Source: Candidatus Saccharimonadia bacterium (GTDB taxonomy: Bacteria > Patescibacteriota > Saccharimonadia > Saccharimonadales > JALRHH01). Taken from it: a DNA stretch of 64,000 nucleotides. Below, one piece after another: positions 5,962-49,128 of the stretch (its first letter is position 1; each line of letters opens with the position of its first letter). The translations under genes and the position numbers were made by a program. The notes beneath the pieces are model-generated. The model was given only the letters and a program-made list of their open reading frames with translations. It was not told where the DNA came from and searched no databases. Where the stretch lies: positions 364,020 to 428,019 of the forward strand of contig JALRHH010000001.1 in NCBI GenBank assembly GCA_023253175.1. Reading direction: 5' to 3'.

Positions 5962-6845
5962 TACTTCTTCGCCTTTGCTTTCTTGGTTCGCGCTTTATAT
6001 GTACGCTTTTTTGGAGTAGCTTTTTTGACGGAAACTTTTTTGGCAGCGGGCTTTTCATCTGGCATGGTATTCATGAGCGATGAGACGCCCTTGAGATCAT
6101 CATCAACTGTCTTGCGCGGCGCAAAGTACATACTGCGTTTAAGCGTATCTGGGATCTCACCGAGCTTGGTTTGTTCATCAGCAACAATACTACCGTCATG
6201 CATAAAGACCACGCGGCTTGCGTACTTCGTCAAGGAAGGGTTGTGCGTCACCATAAGGACCGTATTGCCAGCTTTATGAATATCACTGAGTAGTTCCATT
6301 ACTAATCGGCTGCTTGCACTATCAAGGCTTCCGGTAGGTTCGTCAGCAATAATAATTTGTGGGTCATTAATCAGCGCTCGAGCAATCGCTACGCGCTGCG
6401 CCTGACCACCACTGAGCTGACTCGGATAGAAATACTCTTTTTCAGAAAGACCTACACGCTCTAACATGGCAGCAGCTTTTTTCAGCCGCTTTGTTTGTAG
6501 CATGCCCTTGTACGCAAGTGGCAAAGCCACATTTTCAATCACCGTCATACGCGGCAAGAGATTAAACGACTGAAATATAAAACCAACTTTGTCACGGCGG
6601 ACCCTTGCCCGGGATTGCTGGCGAAGCCGGGCAACATGACGACCATCAAGCATGTATTTCCCGTGTGTTGGACGATCGAGTAAGCCAATCACATTAAGTA
6701 AGGTTGATTTACCGGAACCGCTTGGACCCATGATAGCCACGAACTCACCGCGCTCAATAGAAAGCTCAACTTCGTCGAGCGCAATCGTCGTTGCATCGCC
6801 AAAGCCATACAACTTGTTGACATCTTCTAATAAAATCACCGGCAT
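5961..6845 (-). CDS. ABC transporter ATP-binding protein (MacB/LolD-like) with a Lys-rich C-terminal tail
   Basis: Walker A GPSGSGKST, signature LSGGQAQRVAIARAL, Walker B IIIADEPTGSLD. It overlaps the permease start by 1 nt. The extra tail is ...KPAAKKVSVKKATPKKRTYKARTKKAKAKK. Confidence 0.95.
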   Translation of the reverse strand: MPVILLEDVNKLYGFGDATTIALDEVELSIERGEFVAIMGPSGSGKSTLLNVIGLLDRPTHGKYMLDGRHVARLRQQSRARVRRDKVGFIFQSFNLLPRMTVIENVALPLAYKGMLQTKRLKKAAAMLERVGLSEKEYFYPSQLSGGQAQRVAIARALINDPQIIIADEPTGSLDSASSRLVMELLSDIHKAGNTVLMVTHNPSLTKYASRVVFMHDGSIVADEQTKLGEIPDTLKRSMYFAPRKTVDDDLKGVSSLMNTMPDEKPAAKKVSVKKATPKKRTYKARTKKAKAKK

Positions 6846-6930
6846 TTACCAGATAGTGTACCTTCTTTGGGGTGTAAGCTTCAAGGTGTAAAATCAACAT
6901 TTTTTCGGTATACTGTGCTGGTGCTAGCAC

Positions 6931-6990
6931 GGAGGGGTCGCCTAGTGGCCTATGGCGCACGCTTGGAAAGCGTGTTGGGTTTACGCCCTC
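6931..6990 (+). pseudogene. tRNA-Ser(GGA)-like 5' part with no T-stem 3' strand or acceptor 3' strand
   Basis: GGAGGGG-TC-GCCT-AGTGGCCTA-TGGC-G-CACGC-TTGGAAA-GCGTG, then variable-arm hairpin GGGT-TTAC-GCCC and CGAGG. The required 3' acceptor strand CCCCTCC is absent downstream. The anticodon stem-loop matches the intact tRNA-Ser at 7111 exactly. Confidence 0.6.
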
Positions 6991-7090
6991 GAGGGTGAAG
7001 ATCACCAGTGGTGATCTGCAAGGGAACCAACTCTTGAAAACTTGTTTTCAAAGATGTTGTTCCGGGGTCGCGGAACGTGACCGAATCCAG
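6986..7090 (+). repeat. Structured repeat, copy A (family also at 15222-15338, 46228-46340, 46353-46460)
   Basis: CCCTCGAGGGTGAAGATCACC-AGT-GGTGATCTGCAAGG, a long hairpin tipped by TGAAAACTTGTTTTCA (7035-7050), the GAA-loop hairpin GGTCGCG-GAA-CGTGACC, then GAATCC. Confidence 0.7.
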
Positions 7091-7110
7091 TAATATAAGG
7101 TTCACAGCGT

Positions 7111-7200
7111 GGAGAGGTGTCCGAGTGGTTGAAGGAGCACGCTTGGAAAGCGTGTGTGCAGGCAACTGTACCAGGAGTTCGAATCTCCTTCTCTCCGCCA
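7111..7200 (+). tRNA. tRNA-Ser (anticodon GGA), CCA encoded
   Basis: GGAGAGG acceptor, D-loop GAGTGGTTGAA, anticodon loop TTGGAAA, long variable arm, T-arm AGGAG-TTCGAAT-CTCCT, then TCTCTCC-G-CCA. Confidence 0.95.
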
Positions 7201-7437
7201 GAATAAAAACAGTCAGGCCATTTGTCTGGCTATTTTTATTCCCCACGAAGAAAAGATTCAAACCAGGCTCGATGGTACGGCCGGTGGTCGATCCGGACCG
7301 GATTGCCATGGCCTTGGGGTGATAGTCAGGAGAACCGCATCTTGACGTCATTTCTAGGTCGAATTGATTAACACGGAGTCCAGAATAGGGTTGACATACT
7401 TGATATTTCGGCGCAATGTGTATTTTAAGAGCTATAT

Positions 7438-15183: not shown

Positions 15184-15213
15184 AAAACAAAAACACTCTG
15201 CTTTCGCAAAGTG
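15184..15213 (-). terminator. Rho-independent terminator closing the tRNA-Leu transcription unit
   Basis: On the minus strand, CACTTTGC-GAAA-GCAGAGTG is followed by TTTTTGTTTT. Confidence 0.8.
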
Positions 15214-15221
15214 CTTATGCT

Positions 15222-15338
15222 TGGTACCGCGGGCCGGACTTGACCTACCTTCGGCAGGCCCGAAATTTCGCCATTGAAAACAAGTTTTCATCGGAAAGTT
15301 TCCTTGCAGATTGCCACAGGCAATCTTCACAGCACGAG
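15222..15338 (-). repeat. Structured repeat, copy B, ending in a tRNA-like T-loop/acceptor/CCA
   Basis: On the minus strand: GTGAAGATTGCC-TGT-GGCAATCTGCAAGG, a hairpin tipped by TGAAAACTTGTTTTCA (15275-15290), GGCCTGCC-GAA-GGTAGGTC, then AAGTCCGGCCCGCGGTACCA. Confidence 0.7.
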
Positions 15339-15408
15339 CTAATGCTCACTGGATTTTGACGTTTACGGCACAACCTTCGGGTTGTGCGCCCTGGCGTTTA
15401 AAAATATG

Positions 15409-15493
15409 TGGTGGGCGAGGAGGGACTTGAACCCTCAATCCGTAAGGAACGCGATTTTGAGTCGCGCGCGTATACCAATTCCGCCACTCGCCC
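15409..15493 (-). tRNA. tRNA-Leu (anticodon CAA), CCA encoded
   Basis: GGGCGAG-TG-GCGGAATTGGTATACGCG-CGCGA-CTCAAAA-TCGCG, variable arm TTCCTTACGGATT, T-arm GAGGG-TTCAAGT-CCCTC, then CTCGCCC-A-CCA. Confidence 0.95.
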
Positions 15494-15514
15494 ATCATAT
15501 ATTTTTAAAATACT

Positions 15515-15552
15515 GCCCTGGCGGTATTGTCTACCAATTCCACCACCGCGGC
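15515..15552 (-). pseudogene. tRNA-Leu-like 5' fragment (acceptor 5' strand plus D-arm)
   Basis: The minus strand reads GCCGCGGTGGTGGAATTGGTAGACAATACCGCCAGGGC. GTGGTGGAATTGGTAGAC matches the intact tRNA-Leu (GTGGCGGAATTGGTATAC) with 2 mismatches. GCCGCGG is complementary to CCGCGGT-A-CCA at 15222-15232. Confidence 0.55.
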
Positions 15553-36379: not shown

Positions 36380-37369
36380 ATGACATCACCGCAGTTGCAT
36401 ATTACTCGCCGTAAAAACCGAAATACCTATGATTATTTTGATGTTAACGAAAAGCGCATTACCGATAAAAGAATCATCGAACGCATCAATAAGCTTGCCA
36501 TTCCGCCTGCTTGGAGGAGGGTAGAAATCGCTCCTTCGGCCGCCGCCAAATTACAAGCAACAGGTTATGACTCTGCTGGCCGCAAACAGTCCATTTACCA
36601 CCCAACCTTCAGGCTGAGACAGGACGAGCAGAAATTCGAACGAATACTCCGTTTCGCAAGGGCACTCCCGAAATTACGCGCCCAAGCATCGCGTGACATG
36701 AACAGACGTACATTGTCTCGTGAGAAAGTCTTGGCACTGATTGTAACCCTAATGGACCAGGCTTATTTCCGCGTGGGCAATGAAACATCGGCCAAAGAGC
36801 AGGGCACATATGGCATTACTACGCTCCGCAGTAAACATGTCGACGCCAGCACAACCACCGTAGTATTTGACTTCACCGGCAAAAGTGGCCAGAAACAGCA
36901 TAAGGAAATCAATGACCGCAAAGTAGCCCGAATCATAAAACAGCTCGATGAGGCACCAGGATATGAGCTATTCCATTTTATTGATCATGAAGGGCAGAAG
37001 CAAAACATATCAGCCAGCGACGTAAACGAATATATCAAAGAGACGATGGGCGAGGAGTTTACGGCAAAAGACTTCAGAACCTGGGGTGGAACATTGCTTG
37101 CAACCAGCGCCGCACTAAAAGTCGACATCGATAAGGAAGCCGGTAAGACAGAACTAAAGAAAATGGTGACAACTATCGTCAAAAGTGTCGCCAAACGGCT
37201 CGGCAACACCCCAGCAATCGCCAGAAGTTCCTACATAGACCCACGCGTCATCGGCGCATTCGATGATAAAGAAACACTGCCAAAACTCAGGGAAGCTATG
37301 ACCAAAATGAAACCACGGAAGTATTTATCCATCGAAGAGCAATGCGTCATGAAGCTACTGTCAGGGTAA
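36380..37369 (+). CDS. DNA topoisomerase IB (poxvirus-type bacterial TopIB)
   Basis: INKLAIPPAW, GYDSAGRKQSIYHP, YGITTLR, FTAKDFRTWGGT, and ARSSYIDPRV carrying the catalytic Tyr. Confidence 0.9.
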   Translation: MTSPQLHITRRKNRNTYDYFDVNEKRITDKRIIERINKLAIPPAWRRVEIAPSAAAKLQATGYDSAGRKQSIYHPTFRLRQDEQKFERILRFARALPKLRAQASRDMNRRTLSREKVLALIVTLMDQAYFRVGNETSAKEQGTYGITTLRSKHVDASTTTVVFDFTGKSGQKQHKEINDRKVARIIKQLDEAPGYELFHFIDHEGQKQNISASDVNEYIKETMGEEFTAKDFRTWGGTLLATSAALKVDIDKEAGKTELKKMVTTIVKSVAKRLGNTPAIARSSYIDPRVIGAFDDKETLPKLREAMTKMKPRKYLSIEEQCVMKLLSG

Positions 37370-37595: not shown

Positions 37596-37670
37596 TGGTG
37601 ACCTCACGGGGAATCGAACCCCGATTGCCAGGATGAGAACCTGGTGTCCTAACCGTTAGACGATGAGGCC
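37596..37670 (-). tRNA. tRNA-Glu (anticodon CTC), CCA encoded
   Basis: GGCCTCA-TC-GTCT-AACGGTTA-GGAC-A-CCAGG-TTCTCAT-CCTGG-CAAT-CGGGG-TTCGATT-CCCCG-TGAGGTC-A-CCA. Confidence 0.95.
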
Positions 37671-46227: not shown

Positions 46228-46340
46228 TCCTCAGAGTATGAAGACTGCCAGTGGCTAACAGCAAGGTCATCTTCTCCTGAAAACTTGTTTTCATGGATGA
46301 AATGACGGGCTCGCCGAAGGTGAGTGGGCACTTCTCAGAC
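46228..46340 (+). repeat. Structured repeat, copy C1
   Basis: TCCTCAGAGTATGAAGACTGCC-AGT-GGCTAACAGCAAGG, a hairpin tipped by TGAAAACTTGTTTTCA (46278-46293), then GCTCGCC-GAA-GGTGAGT. Confidence 0.7.
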
Positions 46341-46352
46341 CAACTAAAAAGA

Positions 46353-46460
46353 GCCCTCAGAGGGTGAAAAATCCCTGTGAGATTTTGCAAGGAAATCTAC
46401 TCTTCAAAACTTGTTTTGAAAGATGTAGTTTTGAGGCCACAGAATGGGGCTGAGGCGCCG
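46353..46460 (+). repeat. Structured repeat, copy C2 (tandem to C1)
   Basis: GCCCTCAGAGGGTGAAAAATCCC-TGT-GAGATTTTGCAAGG, a hairpin tipped by TCAAAACTTGTTTTGA (46404-46419, compensatory G/C swap), then GCCACA-GAA-TGGGGC. Confidence 0.7.
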
Positions 46461-46473
46461 CTTTTACGAAGAC

Positions 46474-46863
46474 AAAAAAAGAGCCGTCAGAGGGGGTGGG
46501 CACCGCTGACAGCTCATTTCATGGCTCGAAACGTGTTCGAGCCGGGGAATCACCCTTCAACCCACCCGAGCGAAACATCATCGCCTAACGTCTAGTGGCG
46601 TGTGTCTGCAGAAGCAATCATTTAGACTCGCTTTGATCGGGAGCCGGGGGCGTTACCTCGTAACGTCCGGGGATCTGTTAAAGGGGTTAGTATGTTTTAG
46701 AACGTCTTGCAAACAAGTCACAAGAGCAAAGAGTAAGTGGAGGGTAACAACTTCTAATTGGCGCGCTCTAAAACACTCTAACGTTCATCTCCTAACAAGT
46801 AGGGGACGAATGCTATAAATGGGGGTTTAAAAGGTGCGAAAGCGTCATTACGAACGCTTACAG
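46474..46863 (-). ncRNA. Candidate ~390-nt non-coding transcript bounded by a promoter and a terminator; family unknown
   Basis: Near-consensus promoter at 46870-46898. Terminator GAGCTGTCAG...CTGACGGCTC followed by T7 at 46474-46515. No ORF longer than 20 codons. Contains hairpins such as 46644-46672. Confidence 0.5.
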
Positions 46864-46869
46864 GTTGTA

Positions 46870-46898
46870 ATATTAGCAAATTTGTTTCCTAATGTCAA
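46870..46898 (-). promoter_or_regulatory. Sigma-70-type promoter
   Basis: On the minus strand: TTGACA (46893-46898), 17 nt, then TAATAT (46870-46875). Confidence 0.6.
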
Positions 46899-46962
46899 TA
46901 CTTAAACACTATTTTGTGTTTTTAGCGAAAATGTAACTGTACTATATTTTACCACTAGCGTA

Positions 46963-47910: not shown

Positions 47911-48113
47911 AATGGCTCTTTAACCTATTATTCCCGACCAGCGCCCGTGACCGCAAGATGTGTAAGGATAAGGTTCGTTTCGCTAATGAACCGGCCGCCA
48001 ACGAGGCAATTAGACGTATCAACCCCACTCGGCGTAAAGACAAGCCGAATAGGGCATACAAATGTCCCAAATGCCGCGGCTATCATCTGACGCGCAGCCC
48101 AAAGCAGCAATAA
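47907..48113 (+). CDS. Small basic protein with a C-terminal CPKCxGxH zinc-ribbon-like motif
   Basis: ATGA overlap with the dprA stop. The motif is ...AYKCPKCRGYHLT. Confidence 0.5.
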   Translation: MKWLFNLLFPTSARDRKMCKDKVRFANEPAANEAIRRINPTRRKDKPNRAYKCPKCRGYHLTRSPKQQ

Positions 48114-48255
48114 TCATACATAATAGTATGTGAACATTTTCATTGCTTATTTTTGCATTTTACAATATAATATTATGGTTTTGTCGAGTTTTGAGAGTTC
48201 TAAATTCTCCTCAACATTACGATCATTGACAAGCAGATACAGGAAGAGGTGATTG

Positions 48256-48528
48256 ATGTCTCCAGCACGTGCTAGACTGTCCGTCGAAAACTGCCACGTG
48301 ACTCCGCTCAAAGCAGCAGAGCTCGGCCAGTATCTCGGCGCACGATTGTCGTGGCACATCGAAGTGGTGATCCATTTCCACTCGAACGAGAGCCTAACGC
48401 TCACGTTTGTTCCACCATGGGAGTACTGGCAGCGACCGGCAATGTTCAAAGAACTTGTCGCGAGAGTCAGTGGCTTCACTACCGGCACCGTAATCGAACA
48501 AGGTACCGAAGACACCGTTCTCCGGTAA
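48256..48528 (+). CDS. Hypothetical protein (high-GC islet)
   Basis: AGGAAGAGG RBS 7 nt upstream of the ATG. 90 aa. The antisense ORFs here are compositional artefacts. Confidence 0.45.
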   Translation: MSPARARLSVENCHVTPLKAAELGQYLGARLSWHIEVVIHFHSNESLTLTFVPPWEYWQRPAMFKELVARVSGFTTGTVIEQGTEDTVLR

Positions 48529-48540
48529 TGAAAGGAAACA

Positions 48541-48702
48541 ATGTCTGTCCAGCAAGGTCGGGGATACGGATACACGTCAGATGAGATGCTGAGCTGCATG
48601 CGAAGCGCGAGAGGCCTCGGCGTCCCGTTCGCACCCCGACGACTCGGCCCCATCGGCATCGTCCTCCAGGGCAGCAAGAAGCTCCTGGGAGTTCTCTTCT
48701 GA
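48541..48702 (+). CDS. Hypothetical small protein (53 aa), second gene of the islet
   Basis: My own translation gives MSVQQGRGYGYTSDEMLSCMRSARGLGVPFAPRRLGPIGIVLQGSKKLLGVLF. AAAGGAAA lies upstream. A 12-bp hairpin follows at 48720-48765. The ORF is below the track size cut-off. Confidence 0.3.
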   Translation: MSVQQGRGYGYTSDEMLSCMRSARGLGVPFAPRRLGPIGIVLQGSKKLLGVLF

Positions 48703-48872
48703 GGGGTGCACTCGGAACTCGCTGTGGGCGATCAAGGCATACGCTGCTCTTGGTCGCCCACAGCGCCCGCCCCCTACGCCCAAAAACCCGTATCTGCTTG
48801 TCATCAACCCAATGAATTACCTTTAAAGTAGTCCTACAATATGTAGGGCTTTTTATATGCCATACTATGTAT

Positions 48873-49046
48873 ATGAGCCAAAAAACAATTATCTACATAT
48901 TTATCGCTATCTTTGGTACGGCAGGCAGCTGGCTCGGCAGTCTCCTCGACAAAGGCAATATGTTTGGTGTCTGGGGCATTATTGGCGGCACCATTGGCGG
49001 ACTGTTCGGCATCTGGGCGGCCGTAAAGGCCACCAGCGGCGAGTAA
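48873..49046 (+). CDS. Small two-helix membrane protein (57 aa)
   Basis: My own translation gives MSQKTIIYIFIAIFGTAGSWLGSLLDKGNMFGVWGIIGGTIGGLFGIWAAVKATSGE. The overlapping track ORF 48857..49123 is in another frame and looks non-protein-like. Confidence 0.5.
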   Translation: MSQKTIIYIFIAIFGTAGSWLGSLLDKGNMFGVWGIIGGTIGGLFGIWAAVKATSGE

Positions 49047-49128
49047 GCGACTTATTTGCATTCGCCATCCATGTGCGTTACGCTAGAGCGGTTTTGATCA
49101 AACAATACATGAGGTATACTTAAGCGTA

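Follow-up and report, generated by a model that had tools for sequence, protein, structure and literature searches.

Several kinds of extra segment are known at tRNA genes. Archaeal tRNA introns of the bulge-helix-bulge type occur at D- and T-loop positions, and tRNA sequence also serves as a scaffold for other non-coding RNAs, as with the box C/D guide in the archaeal tRNA-Trp intron, mascRNA-type processing signals, and tRNA-headed SINEs. Within the candidate phyla radiation, Saccharibacteria have been studied best, and little persistent non-coding DNA is expected in their tiny genomes. A study of tRNA introns in Patescibacteria is confined to group I introns of anticodon loops (PMC13011429).

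Here we describe an element, E, in a 64,000-nt stretch of DNA from a Saccharimonadia bacterium (the window). E is apparently an undescribed folded RNA module of ~90 nt, with a family extending across Saccharibacteria; our literature search found nothing on it. Like non-canonical tRNA introns, E is an extra structured segment at a tRNA loop, lies in the tRNA orientation, and occupies a gene that standard finders miss. Unlike them, it has incomplete exons, so that excision gives no tRNA, and an intact gene lies alongside; it has neither a group I core nor an evident bulge-helix-bulge, and it is also found in a non-tRNA hairpin and within E itself. As in tRNA-scaffold RNAs, a non-tRNA module appears to use tRNA sequence for expression, folding, and processing, one layout resembling a tRNA head followed by a body. 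However, E is bacterial, has no C/D or H/ACA boxes and no reverse transcriptase context, and it is carried by a fragment of the neighboring gene rather than by a complete tRNA.

Three groups of DNA elements also share features with E. Rickettsia palindromic elements, REP/BIME, Correia elements, and IS200/IS605 PATEs are hairpin-rich repeats of ~100 nt that, like E, occur in a reduced genome and can occupy RNA genes, and the IS200/IS605 derivatives further share a fixed orientation and the absence of target duplication. The attL/attR duplications of tRNA 3′ ends made by integrative and cis-mobilizable elements likewise place a direct repeat of the tRNA 3′ end after an intact tRNA, with the T loop favored. 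Integron attC sites have, like E, a conserved fold, variable stem sequence, bulged bases, and strand-specific structure.

The tRNA-Ser(GGA) locus and the fold of E

Positions 6931-7110 of the window form one E unit, in which a three-hairpin module of ~87 nt is grafted at the T-loop of a truncated tRNA-Ser(GGA) copy. The locus is organized as follows:

6909-6914, + strand: possible -10 box TATACT, a candidate read from the sequence, 16 nt upstream of the tRNA-Ser fragment
6931-6995, + strand: 5′ fragment of tRNA-Ser(GGA), with acceptor 5′ strand, D arm, anticodon arm, variable arm, and T-stem 5′ strand, without their 3′ partner strands
6996-7020, + strand: hairpin P1, GAUCACC-AGU-GGUGAUC, with a conserved A·G mismatch near its base
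7018-7023, + strand: junction GCAAGG, invariant in 113/113 aligned copies
7023-7063, + strand: hairpin P2, ~19 bp, with three single-base bulges
7035-7050, + strand: invariant apex of P2, UGAAAAC-UU-GUUUUCA, with a CUUG loop
7066-7082, + strand: hairpin P3, GGUCGCG-GAA-CGUGACC, with a conserved G·U pair
7083-7088, + strand: T-loop 3′ remnant GAATCC, which in the MFE fold pairs with the variable-arm strand UGGGUUU, closing E
7089-7110, + strand: spacer with -10-like TAATAT/TATAAG at 7091-7099, before the intact tRNA
7111-7200, + strand: intact tRNA-Ser(GGA), CCA encoded, called by ARAGORN and Rfam
7211-7240, + strand: intrinsic terminator after the intact tRNA, the sole one of the locus

The fragment represents the 5′ two-thirds of a tRNA-Ser(GGA), E taking the place of the T-loop. 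Its acceptor strand (GGAGGGG), D arm (GCC/GGC), anticodon arm (CACGC-TTGGAAA-GCGTG, anticodon GGA), variable-arm hairpin, and T-stem 5′ strand (CGAGG(G)) can all be read from the DNA, bearing out a previous sequence-only reading of 6931-6990. That reading was also right that the 3′ strands are missing: neither CCTCG (T stem) nor CCCCTCC (acceptor) occurs 3′ of GAATCC, 6931-7090 makes no complete cloverleaf, and neither ARAGORN nor Rfam (RF00005) calls a tRNA there, even at E ≤ 10. The intact tRNA downstream shares its anticodon stem-loop with the fragment, as had been claimed, the identity covering 19 nt. The core of E, from T6996 to the end of P3 at 7082, is shorter than the ~105 nt first proposed. 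Copy A is an old unit, whose tRNA fragment has diverged from the intact neighbor and lost its T-stem 3′ strand. TATAAT-like boxes occupy the same place in the spacers of other units of this layout, and a consensus promoter scan of 6800-7300 found nothing.

The fold of E is strongly supported by covariation. In the alignment, 97.2% of cells are paired vs. 80.5% in shuffles, none of the 500 shuffles reaching the observed value, and only 31–51% are paired when the register is slid. Double-change cells number 552 vs. 153 in shuffles, and double changes are seen at 20 of the 32 pairs. The conserved pair of P3 is G·U in 96 of the 113 copies, G-C in 10, and A-U in 3, and the CUUG loop persists even where, in some subfamilies, the apex stem differs. 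With the covariance model, the reverse strand of copy A scores 15 bits vs. 114 for the forward strand. Covariation above shuffled and slid controls, together with strand specificity, is the general signature of a structured RNA under selection, and E displays both. A mutual-information search for pseudoknot or tertiary covariation gave nothing beyond the nested helices, and in a conservation test of a 5-bp closing helix the G-rich and C-rich flanks produced a high background. Searches with the Rfam 15 families at the gathering threshold, over the window (four copies) and 18 related loci, returned tRNA and RNase P only, none over E, and at a permissive threshold (E ≤ 10) no match at loci A and C/D overlapped E. 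Covariation, strand specificity, and the layout of expression signals together suggest a putative RNA product; the G·T pairs would also fit a folded single DNA strand.

Copies in the window and across Saccharibacteria

The covariance model finds exactly four copies of E in the window, scoring 84–114 bits:

6990-7094, + strand: copy A, 114 bits, E = 2e-31
15231-15335, − strand: copy B, 101 bits
46233-46337, + strand: copy C, 84 bits, with P1 partly broken, downstream of a CAP-domain gene
46359-46463, + strand: copy D, 93.5 bits, inside the loop of a duplicated 5′ hairpin whose parent belongs to a downstream unannotated RNA

The 16-nt apex TGAAAACTTGTTTTCA is present at all four (0.02 expected by chance), and the closing stem of copy D, GCCCUCAG/CUGAGGCGC, shows compensatory change relative to its parent stem. 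The tRNA-Leu locus around copy B had been thought to show the same arrangement as the tRNA-Ser locus. Instead, E lies there downstream of the intact tRNA-Leu(CAA), in the 3′ part of a degenerate second tRNA-Leu:

15513-15552, − strand: 5′ part of the degenerate outer tRNA-Leu, with acceptor GCCGCGG and D arm, upstream of the intact tRNA-Leu
15523-15515, − strand: first copy of the 9-nt repeat CGCCAGGGC, inside this 5′ part
15409-15493, − strand: intact tRNA-Leu(CAA), flanked on either side by one part of the outer pseudo-tRNA-Leu
15222-15243, − strand: tail of copy B, a T-loop remnant followed by CCGCGGT-A-CCA, complementary to the acceptor 5′ strand at 15552-15546
15191-15216, − strand: terminator after copy B

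The interval between tRNA-Leu and copy B contains no terminator. Rebuilding the outer tRNA-Leu by removing the nested tRNA and E gave no tRNA.

A 22-base core pattern of E occurs in at least 117 stretches of genome sequence and at least 120 stretches of a metagenome collection, almost all from Saccharibacteria, and the 109 genome copies in the alignment derive from 87 assemblies, again almost all Saccharibacteria. Being seeded with the exact core, the sample favors well-preserved copies; the covariance model also recovers decayed ones at 30–80 bits. Viral contigs contain no exact match to the core, and a relaxed pattern (at least 120 viral stretches) gave no true model match among the 80 loci examined; a phage origin was rejected on these grounds.

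About three-quarters of copies have an intact tRNA within 160 nt on their own strand, and roughly half of the tRNAs in the fetched loci (75 of 137) have a same-strand E within 160 nt. None of the copies inspected is a clear opposite-strand case; three further copies, on the opposite strand, lie within 200 nt of a tRNA. Copies near tRNAs sit inside a partial duplicate of that neighboring tRNA, the flanks matching it over 20–22 nt on the 3′ side and, on the 5′ side, over at least 45 nt, the longest stretch compared. Two main layouts are seen. In the upstream type, which includes copy A, a tRNA 5′ fragment is followed by E, a short spacer with a -10 box, and the intact tRNA. In the downstream type, the intact tRNA is followed by a terminator, a decayed inverted copy of the T arm, a T-stem 5′ strand, E, a T-loop remnant, the 3′ acceptor strand with CCA, and a second terminator. 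An independent metagenome sample contained 39 downstream units, 33 upstream units, 1 of both types, and 24 lone copies. The terminator layout suggests that E may be co-transcribed with the tRNA, in line with the original proposal. Tandem arrays of units also occur, and at one locus (L097) successive units follow a single tRNA, an ORF separating the second unit from the third.

The insertion junctions have the logo GGG|TGA(G/A)AA. Downstream-type insertions are in the T loop in 44 of 45 cases, and upstream-type insertions are in T, D, anticodon, or variable loops. E is also found in a non-tRNA RNA hairpin and, at CGGG^U, within P3 of another E. Thus, the central claim of the sequence-only reading, that a structured element recurs at the T-loop position of a truncated tRNA beside an intact tRNA of the same identity, is supported, and the element was found again in the window and in relatives, mostly at tRNA genes. 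The proposed targeting of class II tRNA genes does not hold, since carriers comprise more than 30 anticodons of ~18 amino acids, nor does restriction to T loops.

The idea of a once-functional gene broken in place fared no better. We attempted excision with 18 × 45 boundary combinations per copy followed by ARAGORN, for ~210 copies with enough flank, of ~250 found. Seven genome copies were flagged, and on inspection only one, a tRNA-Lys(UUU) (L106), was a complete interrupted tRNA. Excision thus convincingly restores a tRNA in one of ~110 genome copies and, for the 120 metagenome copies, in none of the ~100 that could be tested, or about 1 in 200 overall; copy A yields nothing. The carrier is normally a partial duplicate of its neighbor.

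Copies of E within a genome are as diverged as copies from different genomes (identity 0.766 vs. 0.759), indicating that E is not a currently spreading element, and clustering by locus type or genome gives essentially no signal. Very similar pairs are slightly enriched within genomes (5/31 vs. 4.6%, p = 0.014), so some copying between loci occurs. Orthologous units retain high-scoring folds through compensatory changes, both at Val-UAC in five species and at Ser-GGA (the window, L067, and L109, where the tRNA-Ser fragment and E of the window align to their equivalents). E is better conserved than its immediate flanks in three of the four alignable genome pairs but not more conserved than alignable outside DNA (0.72–0.86 vs. 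0.72–0.90), a mixed result from only four pairs. An early impression of highly conserved spacers (L019/L035) did not generalize.

Origin and maintenance of E

The reading that we prefer, tentatively and with slightly less than even confidence, is that a lineage-specific RNA module may have entered exposed loops of redundant stable-RNA gene copies, where it would be transcribed via the signals of the tRNA gene and kept by selection. Hairpin-driven local rearrangements, suggested by sense/antisense junctions at palindromic arms, would have produced redundant partial copies of stable-RNA genes. E would then have entered their single-stranded loops after a G run (GGG^UGA), the site pattern that the junctions display. 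From the promoter and terminator layout, the chimera is predicted to be transcribed from the tRNA gene's own or duplicated promoter, its 3′ end being set either at the tRNA terminator or through RNase P cleavage at the next tRNA. The selected product would be E RNA in its folded form, with the T stem, or another helix in its stead, closing the module; selection on the fold itself is evident. This RNA probably acts through the invariant junction and P2 apex on a putative protein or RNA partner. A point against this reading is that the direct repeats flanking E should delete it readily, so that its retention would require selection for a function that we cannot name. Nor does the reading account for the identity of the 3′ tail to the tRNA in 30 of 50 downstream units.

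Alternatively, E could be a selfish, non-autonomous insertion element (REP-, PATE-, or MITE-like, moving as single-stranded DNA) that targets GGG^T, with hairpins serving transposition rather than the host; it would survive only in redundant tRNA fragments, as insertions in real tRNA genes would be lethal. We consider this unlikely. The orientation fixed relative to the target, the G-run logo, the lack of target-site duplication, the subterminal hairpins P1 and P3, nesting of E in E, tandem arrays, the tail of decayed copies, and the weak within-genome excess of near-identical pairs would all fit. However, the copies are deeply diverged without a sign of a recent burst, compensatory change preserves the helices of orthologous copies as the flanks drift, and E is embedded in a partial duplicate of the neighboring gene. 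Pfam searches of 48 window ORFs (all but two of the non-overlapping ones of ≥180 aa; E ≤ 1e-5, one scan 1e-3) revealed no transposase, HUH, integrase, or RT domain. As a MITE or IS derivative, E has neither terminal inverted repeats nor target-site duplications at its junctions, no set of near-identical copies, and no transposase in those ORFs. As an IS200/IS605 PATE or REP/RAYT element, its hairpins, fixed orientation, and GGG^ site are compatible, and an HUH gene is absent from the same ORFs. The window does carry a topoisomerase IB gene, whose CCCTT-type site mismatches the E junctions.

A more radical form of the RNA interpretation, which we regard as distinctly unlikely, is that E would represent a new class of RNA domain, either a loop-invading, intron-like element spreading at the RNA or single-strand level or a functional ~90-nt domain that gives tRNA-like molecules via shared halves.

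In another improbable reading, E would serve recombination at the DNA level as an att- or attC-like site (acting as a folded single strand), with small cassettes integrating at tRNAs and the partial duplicates being attL/attR-type repeats. Direct repeats of the tRNA 3′ end and terminator, the successive units and ORF at L097, a perfect 16-bp palindrome with a central TT, and a conserved structure with variable sequence and bulged bases, as in attC, are consistent with it. But nearly all units are empty: the repeats lie just ~70–200 nt apart and bound only terminator and spacer, 5′-fragment units exist as well, no recombinase lies nearby, and the 48 window ORFs scanned include no integrase. In the repeat, E interrupts the T loop and has tRNA sequence to its left and right, an arrangement that a simple att crossover does not yield. 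Its three-hairpin junction is unlike the single imperfect palindrome of attC, it has no R″/R′ boxes or IntI, and its units are mostly without ORFs. The CUUG loop, conserved despite different apex stems, is an RNA-type feature.

Decidedly improbable is a shared-half tRNA isoform, in which the E-bearing fragment and the intact tRNA next to it, through its complementary half, would pair in a read-through precursor or in trans to give a tRNA-like molecule whose T-loop carries a 90-nt domain. The 3′ tail is identical to the tRNA (20/20) in 30 of 50 downstream units, though the inverted T-arm copy in these units has diverged by ~15%; 5′ fragments are often identical over ≥45 nt, and the complete tRNA-Lys(UUU) with E also speaks for it. 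Unequal crossing-over between repeats, with tandem arrays observed, could equally account for this identity, however, the tRNA halves at window copies A and B are diverged or truncated, and we know of no splicing system that would join such halves.

We find it very improbable that E is a cis-regulator or guide, with the inverted T-arm piece pairing with the cognate tRNA and E serving as a protein- or ligand-binding scaffold. This antisense copy of tRNA positions ~44–62 reaches significance in 32 of the 50 spacers of downstream-type units, and it follows the T-arm variants of individual species. Its mismatches, however, are ordinary GC-to-AT decay without a wobble-preserving bias (30 vs. 22), for which reason a guide-RNA role for the piece was rejected, and it is absent from the downstream-type copy B (z = −0.2; copy A, being upstream-type, falls outside this test). 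The piece looks like a rearrangement scar.

Finally, a genuine tRNA-gene intron, removed to give a functional tRNA, is largely refuted and scarcely tenable: its loop positions match archaeal and algal non-canonical introns and the tRNA-Lys(UUU) of L106 is complete, but a tRNA is hardly ever regained by excision, neither of the 3′ strands is present at copy A, the E-bearing fragment has an intact isoacceptor beside it, no group I or group II model of Rfam matches at the gathering threshold or E ≤ 10 (E is ~87 nt vs. the ≥~200 nt expected), and inspection by eye of GGG|UGA and GAC|CGAAU revealed no obvious bulge-helix-bulge motif.

For Saccharibacteria, a practical consequence is that E units give "broken tRNA" signals, which could mislead tRNA annotation and completeness estimates. 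If E is a mobile element, its target, the loops of stable-RNA genes, and its coexistence with essential genes would be unusual. If it is a functional RNA, as we tentatively favor, it would be an abundant, multi-copy cell component without a known role, and if it proved to be a new class of RNA domain in either form, it would constitute a bacterial RNA system without precedent.

The tRNA-Ser(GGA) fragment and its genomic setting

ARAGORN and Rfam find only three tRNAs in the window, Ser-GGA, Leu-CAA and Glu-CTC. Upstream of the intact tRNA-Ser (locus A) lies part of another tRNA-Ser(GGA), followed by copy A of E, a structured element of about 87 nt with three hairpins (P1, P2 and P3); copy B lies at the tRNA-Leu site (locus B).

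16 nt 5′ of the tRNA-Ser fragment, + strand: TATACT box, read from sequence
6931-6995, + strand: 5′ two-thirds of a class II tRNA-Ser(GGA), read from sequence
6996 (T) to 7082, + strand: E copy A, three hairpins in place of the T loop (covariance model, 114 bits)
7083-7088, + strand: T-loop remnant GAATCC, directly 3′ of E copy A
Spacer before intact tRNA-Ser, + strand: TAATAT/TATAAG, read from sequence
7111-7200, + strand: intact tRNA-Ser-GGA (ARAGORN, Rfam)
15335-15231, - strand: E copy B (covariance model, 101 bits)
15388-15396 and 15515-15523, - strand: 9-nt direct repeat CGCCAGGGC, flanking the AT-rich cassette with the intact tRNA-Leu(CAA) in it
15409-15493, - strand: intact tRNA Leu-CAA (ARAGORN, Rfam)
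37596-37670, - strand: tRNA Glu-CTC (ARAGORN, Rfam)

The 6931-6995 fragment comprises an acceptor strand (GGAGGGG), a D arm (GCC/GGC), an anticodon arm (CACGC-TTGGAAA-GCGTG), a variable-arm hairpin and the T-stem 5′ strand CGAGG(G). Neither a T-stem nor an acceptor 3′ strand follows the remnant, which lies 22 nt from the intact gene. ARAGORN calls no tRNA in 6931-7090, and Rfam gives no match there even at an E-value ≤10. Together with the adjacent intact tRNA-Ser, this confirms the sequence-only reading of a broken tRNA-Ser(GGA) with a structured insert at its T loop; the anticodon stem-loop that it found in common with the intact gene is identical over 19 nt. Minimum-energy folding of 6931-7110 produces the three E hairpins, closed by the variable-arm strand UGGGUUU pairing with GAAUCCA. 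The unit is orthologous to the Ser-GGA units of two related-genome loci, L067 and L109. Fragment and intact gene are different tRNA-Ser(GGA) alleles in all three, and L067 has the two alleles the other way round from L109.

At locus B, the tail following copy B (CCGCGGT-A-CCA) is complementary to the acceptor 5′ strand GCCGCGG upstream of tRNA-Leu(CAA), indicating that the intact gene is nested inside a degenerate, E-bearing outer tRNA-Leu, which can no longer be rebuilt as a tRNA. The 9-nt repeat looks like a junction duplication. The claim that this locus shares the arrangement of locus A holds for E at the T-loop position and an accompanying intact tRNA, and fails for the nested gene and for the order of parts, copy B being of the downstream type described below.

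A single intrinsic terminator (7211-7231) follows the intact tRNA-Ser at locus A; at locus B none separates tRNA-Leu from E, and one (15216-15191) comes right after the copy B tail. With the placement of the boxes, this positions both units for transcription with their tRNA. E is therefore probably transcribed, as the suggestion of a co-transcribed spacer RNA would have it. The window is an ordinary Saccharibacteria-like chromosome segment, syntenic with a Saccharibacteria assembly and carrying a cell-division/cell-wall cluster (MraW to MurG), gltX and dprA, and none of the 48 ORFs scanned has a transposase, integrase or reverse transcriptase domain. The tRNA-Glu(CTC), the sole window tRNA without an E unit, adjoins a bacterial type IB topoisomerase gene (36380-37369, + strand); the enzyme's CCCTT-type cleavage site misfits the E junctions.

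A conserved three-hairpin fold

The 16-nt apex TGAAAACTTGTTTTCA occurs at four window sites against 0.02 expected. The core pattern (GCAAGG and the apex, separated by 11 free bases) matched at least 117 stretches in a one-genome-per-species collection, nearly all from Candidatus Saccharibacteria/Saccharimonadales assemblies, and at least 120 in metagenomes, bearing out the proposed recurrence in relatives; viral contigs gave no match. One match in a Bacteroidales-labelled contig (L034 5696-5728) lacks P1 and P3 and is missed by the covariance model, and is a chance match or unrelated sequence.

The consensus fold and covariance model are based on 113 distinct copies; the aligned genome copies (n = 109) come from 87 assemblies. 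After P1 come the invariant GCAAGG junction and a long P2, which has three single-base bulges and an invariant apex closed by a CUUG loop; P3, with a GAA loop, is last. Compensatory double changes occur in 20 of the 32 pairs. Paired cells reach 97.2% vs. 80.5% in column shuffles (0/500 reach 97.2%), double-change cells number 552 vs. 153, and sliding the register by 1-3 columns lowers the paired fraction to 31-51%. One P3 pair is a conserved G.U (96 G.U, 10 G-C, 3 A-U), and mutual information gave no signal beyond the nested helices. With filters off, the model finds exactly four copies in the window. The reverse strand of copy A scores 15 bits vs. 114, so the structure belongs to the tRNA sense strand.

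A second subfamily retains the CUUG loop and overall layout with a different P2 apex (GAAGCUUGCUUC or GAAGCUAUGCUUC). Its members frequently sit within P3 of a canonical copy, at CGGG^U (L052, L064, L072, L076, L080, L094), and some stand alone (L091 1519-1626; L097 1231-1330). A small hairpin, GGC-UUUA-GCC or GAGC-AUUA-GCUC, recurs beside or within E units (window 15339-15350, - strand; L026, L030, L065, L087, L097).

Partial duplicates of stable-RNA genes

About 250 copies were found, of which about 210 were testable by in silico excision; a tRNA was convincingly restored once, and never in the metagenome sample. In related genomes, E almost never interrupts a complete gene. The single case, L106 (about 1620-1810, + strand), is a complete tRNA-Lys(UUU) with both acceptor strands, CCA and E in the T loop; ARAGORN sees no further tRNA in the 8 kb covered.

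Approximately three-quarters of copies lie ≤160 nt from an intact same-strand tRNA, within a partial duplicate of that very tRNA. In downstream units, a terminator comes after the intact tRNA, and then tRNA positions ~44-62 as an inverted, imperfect copy. A short loop leads to sense positions ~45-53 and E, which is followed by positions ~55-76 with the CCA and often by the same terminator once more. Upstream units, such as that of copy A, open with the 5′ part of the tRNA, which starts at position 1 and stops at the T-stem or at the D, anticodon or variable loop. E comes next, then a few more sense bases (often folding back as antisense); a spacer containing a TATAAT-like box leads to the intact tRNA. 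In the first 100 loci, 137 tRNAs have enough sequence on either side to be judged, and 75 of them come with E units (47 downstream, 23 upstream, 5 both); three opposite-strand copies lie ≤200 nt from a tRNA in these loci, with no clear opposite-strand unit. The metagenome sample reproduces this pattern (39 downstream, 33 upstream, 1 both, 24 lone, 23 too near a contig end). More than 30 anticodons are involved, which contradicts the proposed specificity for class II tRNAs.

Targeting of T loops only is likewise refuted. Downstream units have E in the T loop in 44/45 cases, and upstream units in the T loop (11), the D loop (8) or the anticodon or variable loop (about 10), while copies C and D occupy a non-tRNA hairpin:

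46233-46337, + strand: E copy C (covariance model, 84 bits)
46359-46463, + strand: E copy D (covariance model, 93.5 bits)
46480-46950, + strand: conserved RNA-like region of ~450 nt, unannotated, immediately 5′ of dprA, also in L024, L061 and L079

Both are upstream-type units of a non-tRNA gene, each sitting in a copy of the 5′ hairpin of this region, and in copy D the closing stem differs from the parent hairpin by a compensatory change. What E sites have in common is a single-stranded loop of the folded parent RNA and a preceding G run (junction logo GGG|TGA(G/A)AA); the junctions have neither target duplications nor terminal inverted repeats.

The RNA-like region starts AGAGCCGTCAGAGGGGGTGGGCACCGCTGACAGCTC, contains CACCCTTCAACCCACC, has a long-range helix GTTTTAGA..C / G..TCTAAAAC, and gives no Rfam match even at an E-value ≤10. 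Between dprA and topA, 48100-49100 is ~1 kb without a convincing ORF or an Rfam match at gathering threshold. In L097 (865-2140), tRNA-Lys(CUU) precedes three successive downstream-type units, each preceded by a terminator copy. A 162-aa ORF without Pfam match separates units 2 and 3, as if repeated units had been parted by inserted DNA. In L026, L065 and L087, E is closed by a T-arm-like stem (GGAGGG...CCCCTCC) directly 3′ of a protein gene ending ...EAxAEL*. The tRNA fragment there is limited to the T arm, so E with no more than a T arm can form a free-standing 3′ element.

Maintenance and origin of E

Copy identity is 0.766 within assemblies vs. 0.759 between them, copies do not cluster by locus type, and only tandem units are identical, which shows neither a recent burst nor homogenisation; very similar pairs show a weak within-genome excess (5/31 vs. 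4.6%, p = 0.014). Orthologous units across species keep high model scores with compensated differences (Val-UAC in L003, L006, L027, L048 and L089). Four pairs of genomes could be aligned. In three of them E has changed less than the sequence directly beside it, and its conservation is roughly that of the alignable DNA in the neighbourhood. The 3′ tail matches the tRNA over 20/20 bases in 30/50 downstream units; this calls for selection or for recurrent unequal exchange with the adjacent gene, and tandem arrays (L021, L055, L061, L113 and window C-D) show that unequal exchange happens. The inverted T-arm piece, significant in 32/50 downstream units, may on our reading of the sequences be a scar, left when hairpins caused strand switching at the terminator and T arm.

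We tentatively favour, at a little under even chances, E as a lineage-specific structured RNA module. It would have colonised exposed loops in redundant copies of stable-RNA genes, duplication presumably preceding insertion, would be expressed through the promoter, terminator and processing signals of the tRNA gene, and would be kept by selection on its fold, perhaps at host level. Such a module may work somewhat like a tRNA-scaffolded ncRNA.

The main rival, which we consider unlikely, is that E is purely selfish, a REP-like element or a derivative of IS200/IS605 that moves as single-stranded DNA and persists solely where the target copy is dispensable. In its favour are the fixed orientation, the G-run target and nesting; an IS200/IS605-like element is still a candidate, and E looks somewhat like a REP or Rickettsia-palindromic-type repeat. 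Against it count the missing sign of any burst and the compensatory changes that keep E intact at orthologous loci. An att/attC-like recombination site is improbable, and a shared-half tRNA isoform slightly more so. There is little to recommend an antisense guide or regulator: the inverted T-arm piece was rejected as a guide because its mismatches are plain GC-to-AT decay with no wobble bias (30 vs. 22). A true intron is hardly credible.

E failed the defining tests for a functional tRNA, an intron of any type, a member of any Rfam 15 family, a MITE/IS, an integrase att repeat, attC and a phage element, and no description of it was found in the searchable literature, including a 2026 paper on Patescibacteria tRNA introns. 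Since E fails all of these tests and no published description came to light, we rate the arrangement, measured only against Rfam 15 and the literature open to search and with its mechanism putative, as a new architecture: a truncated duplicate of the stable-RNA gene next to it, with a conserved structured module lodged in one of its loops.
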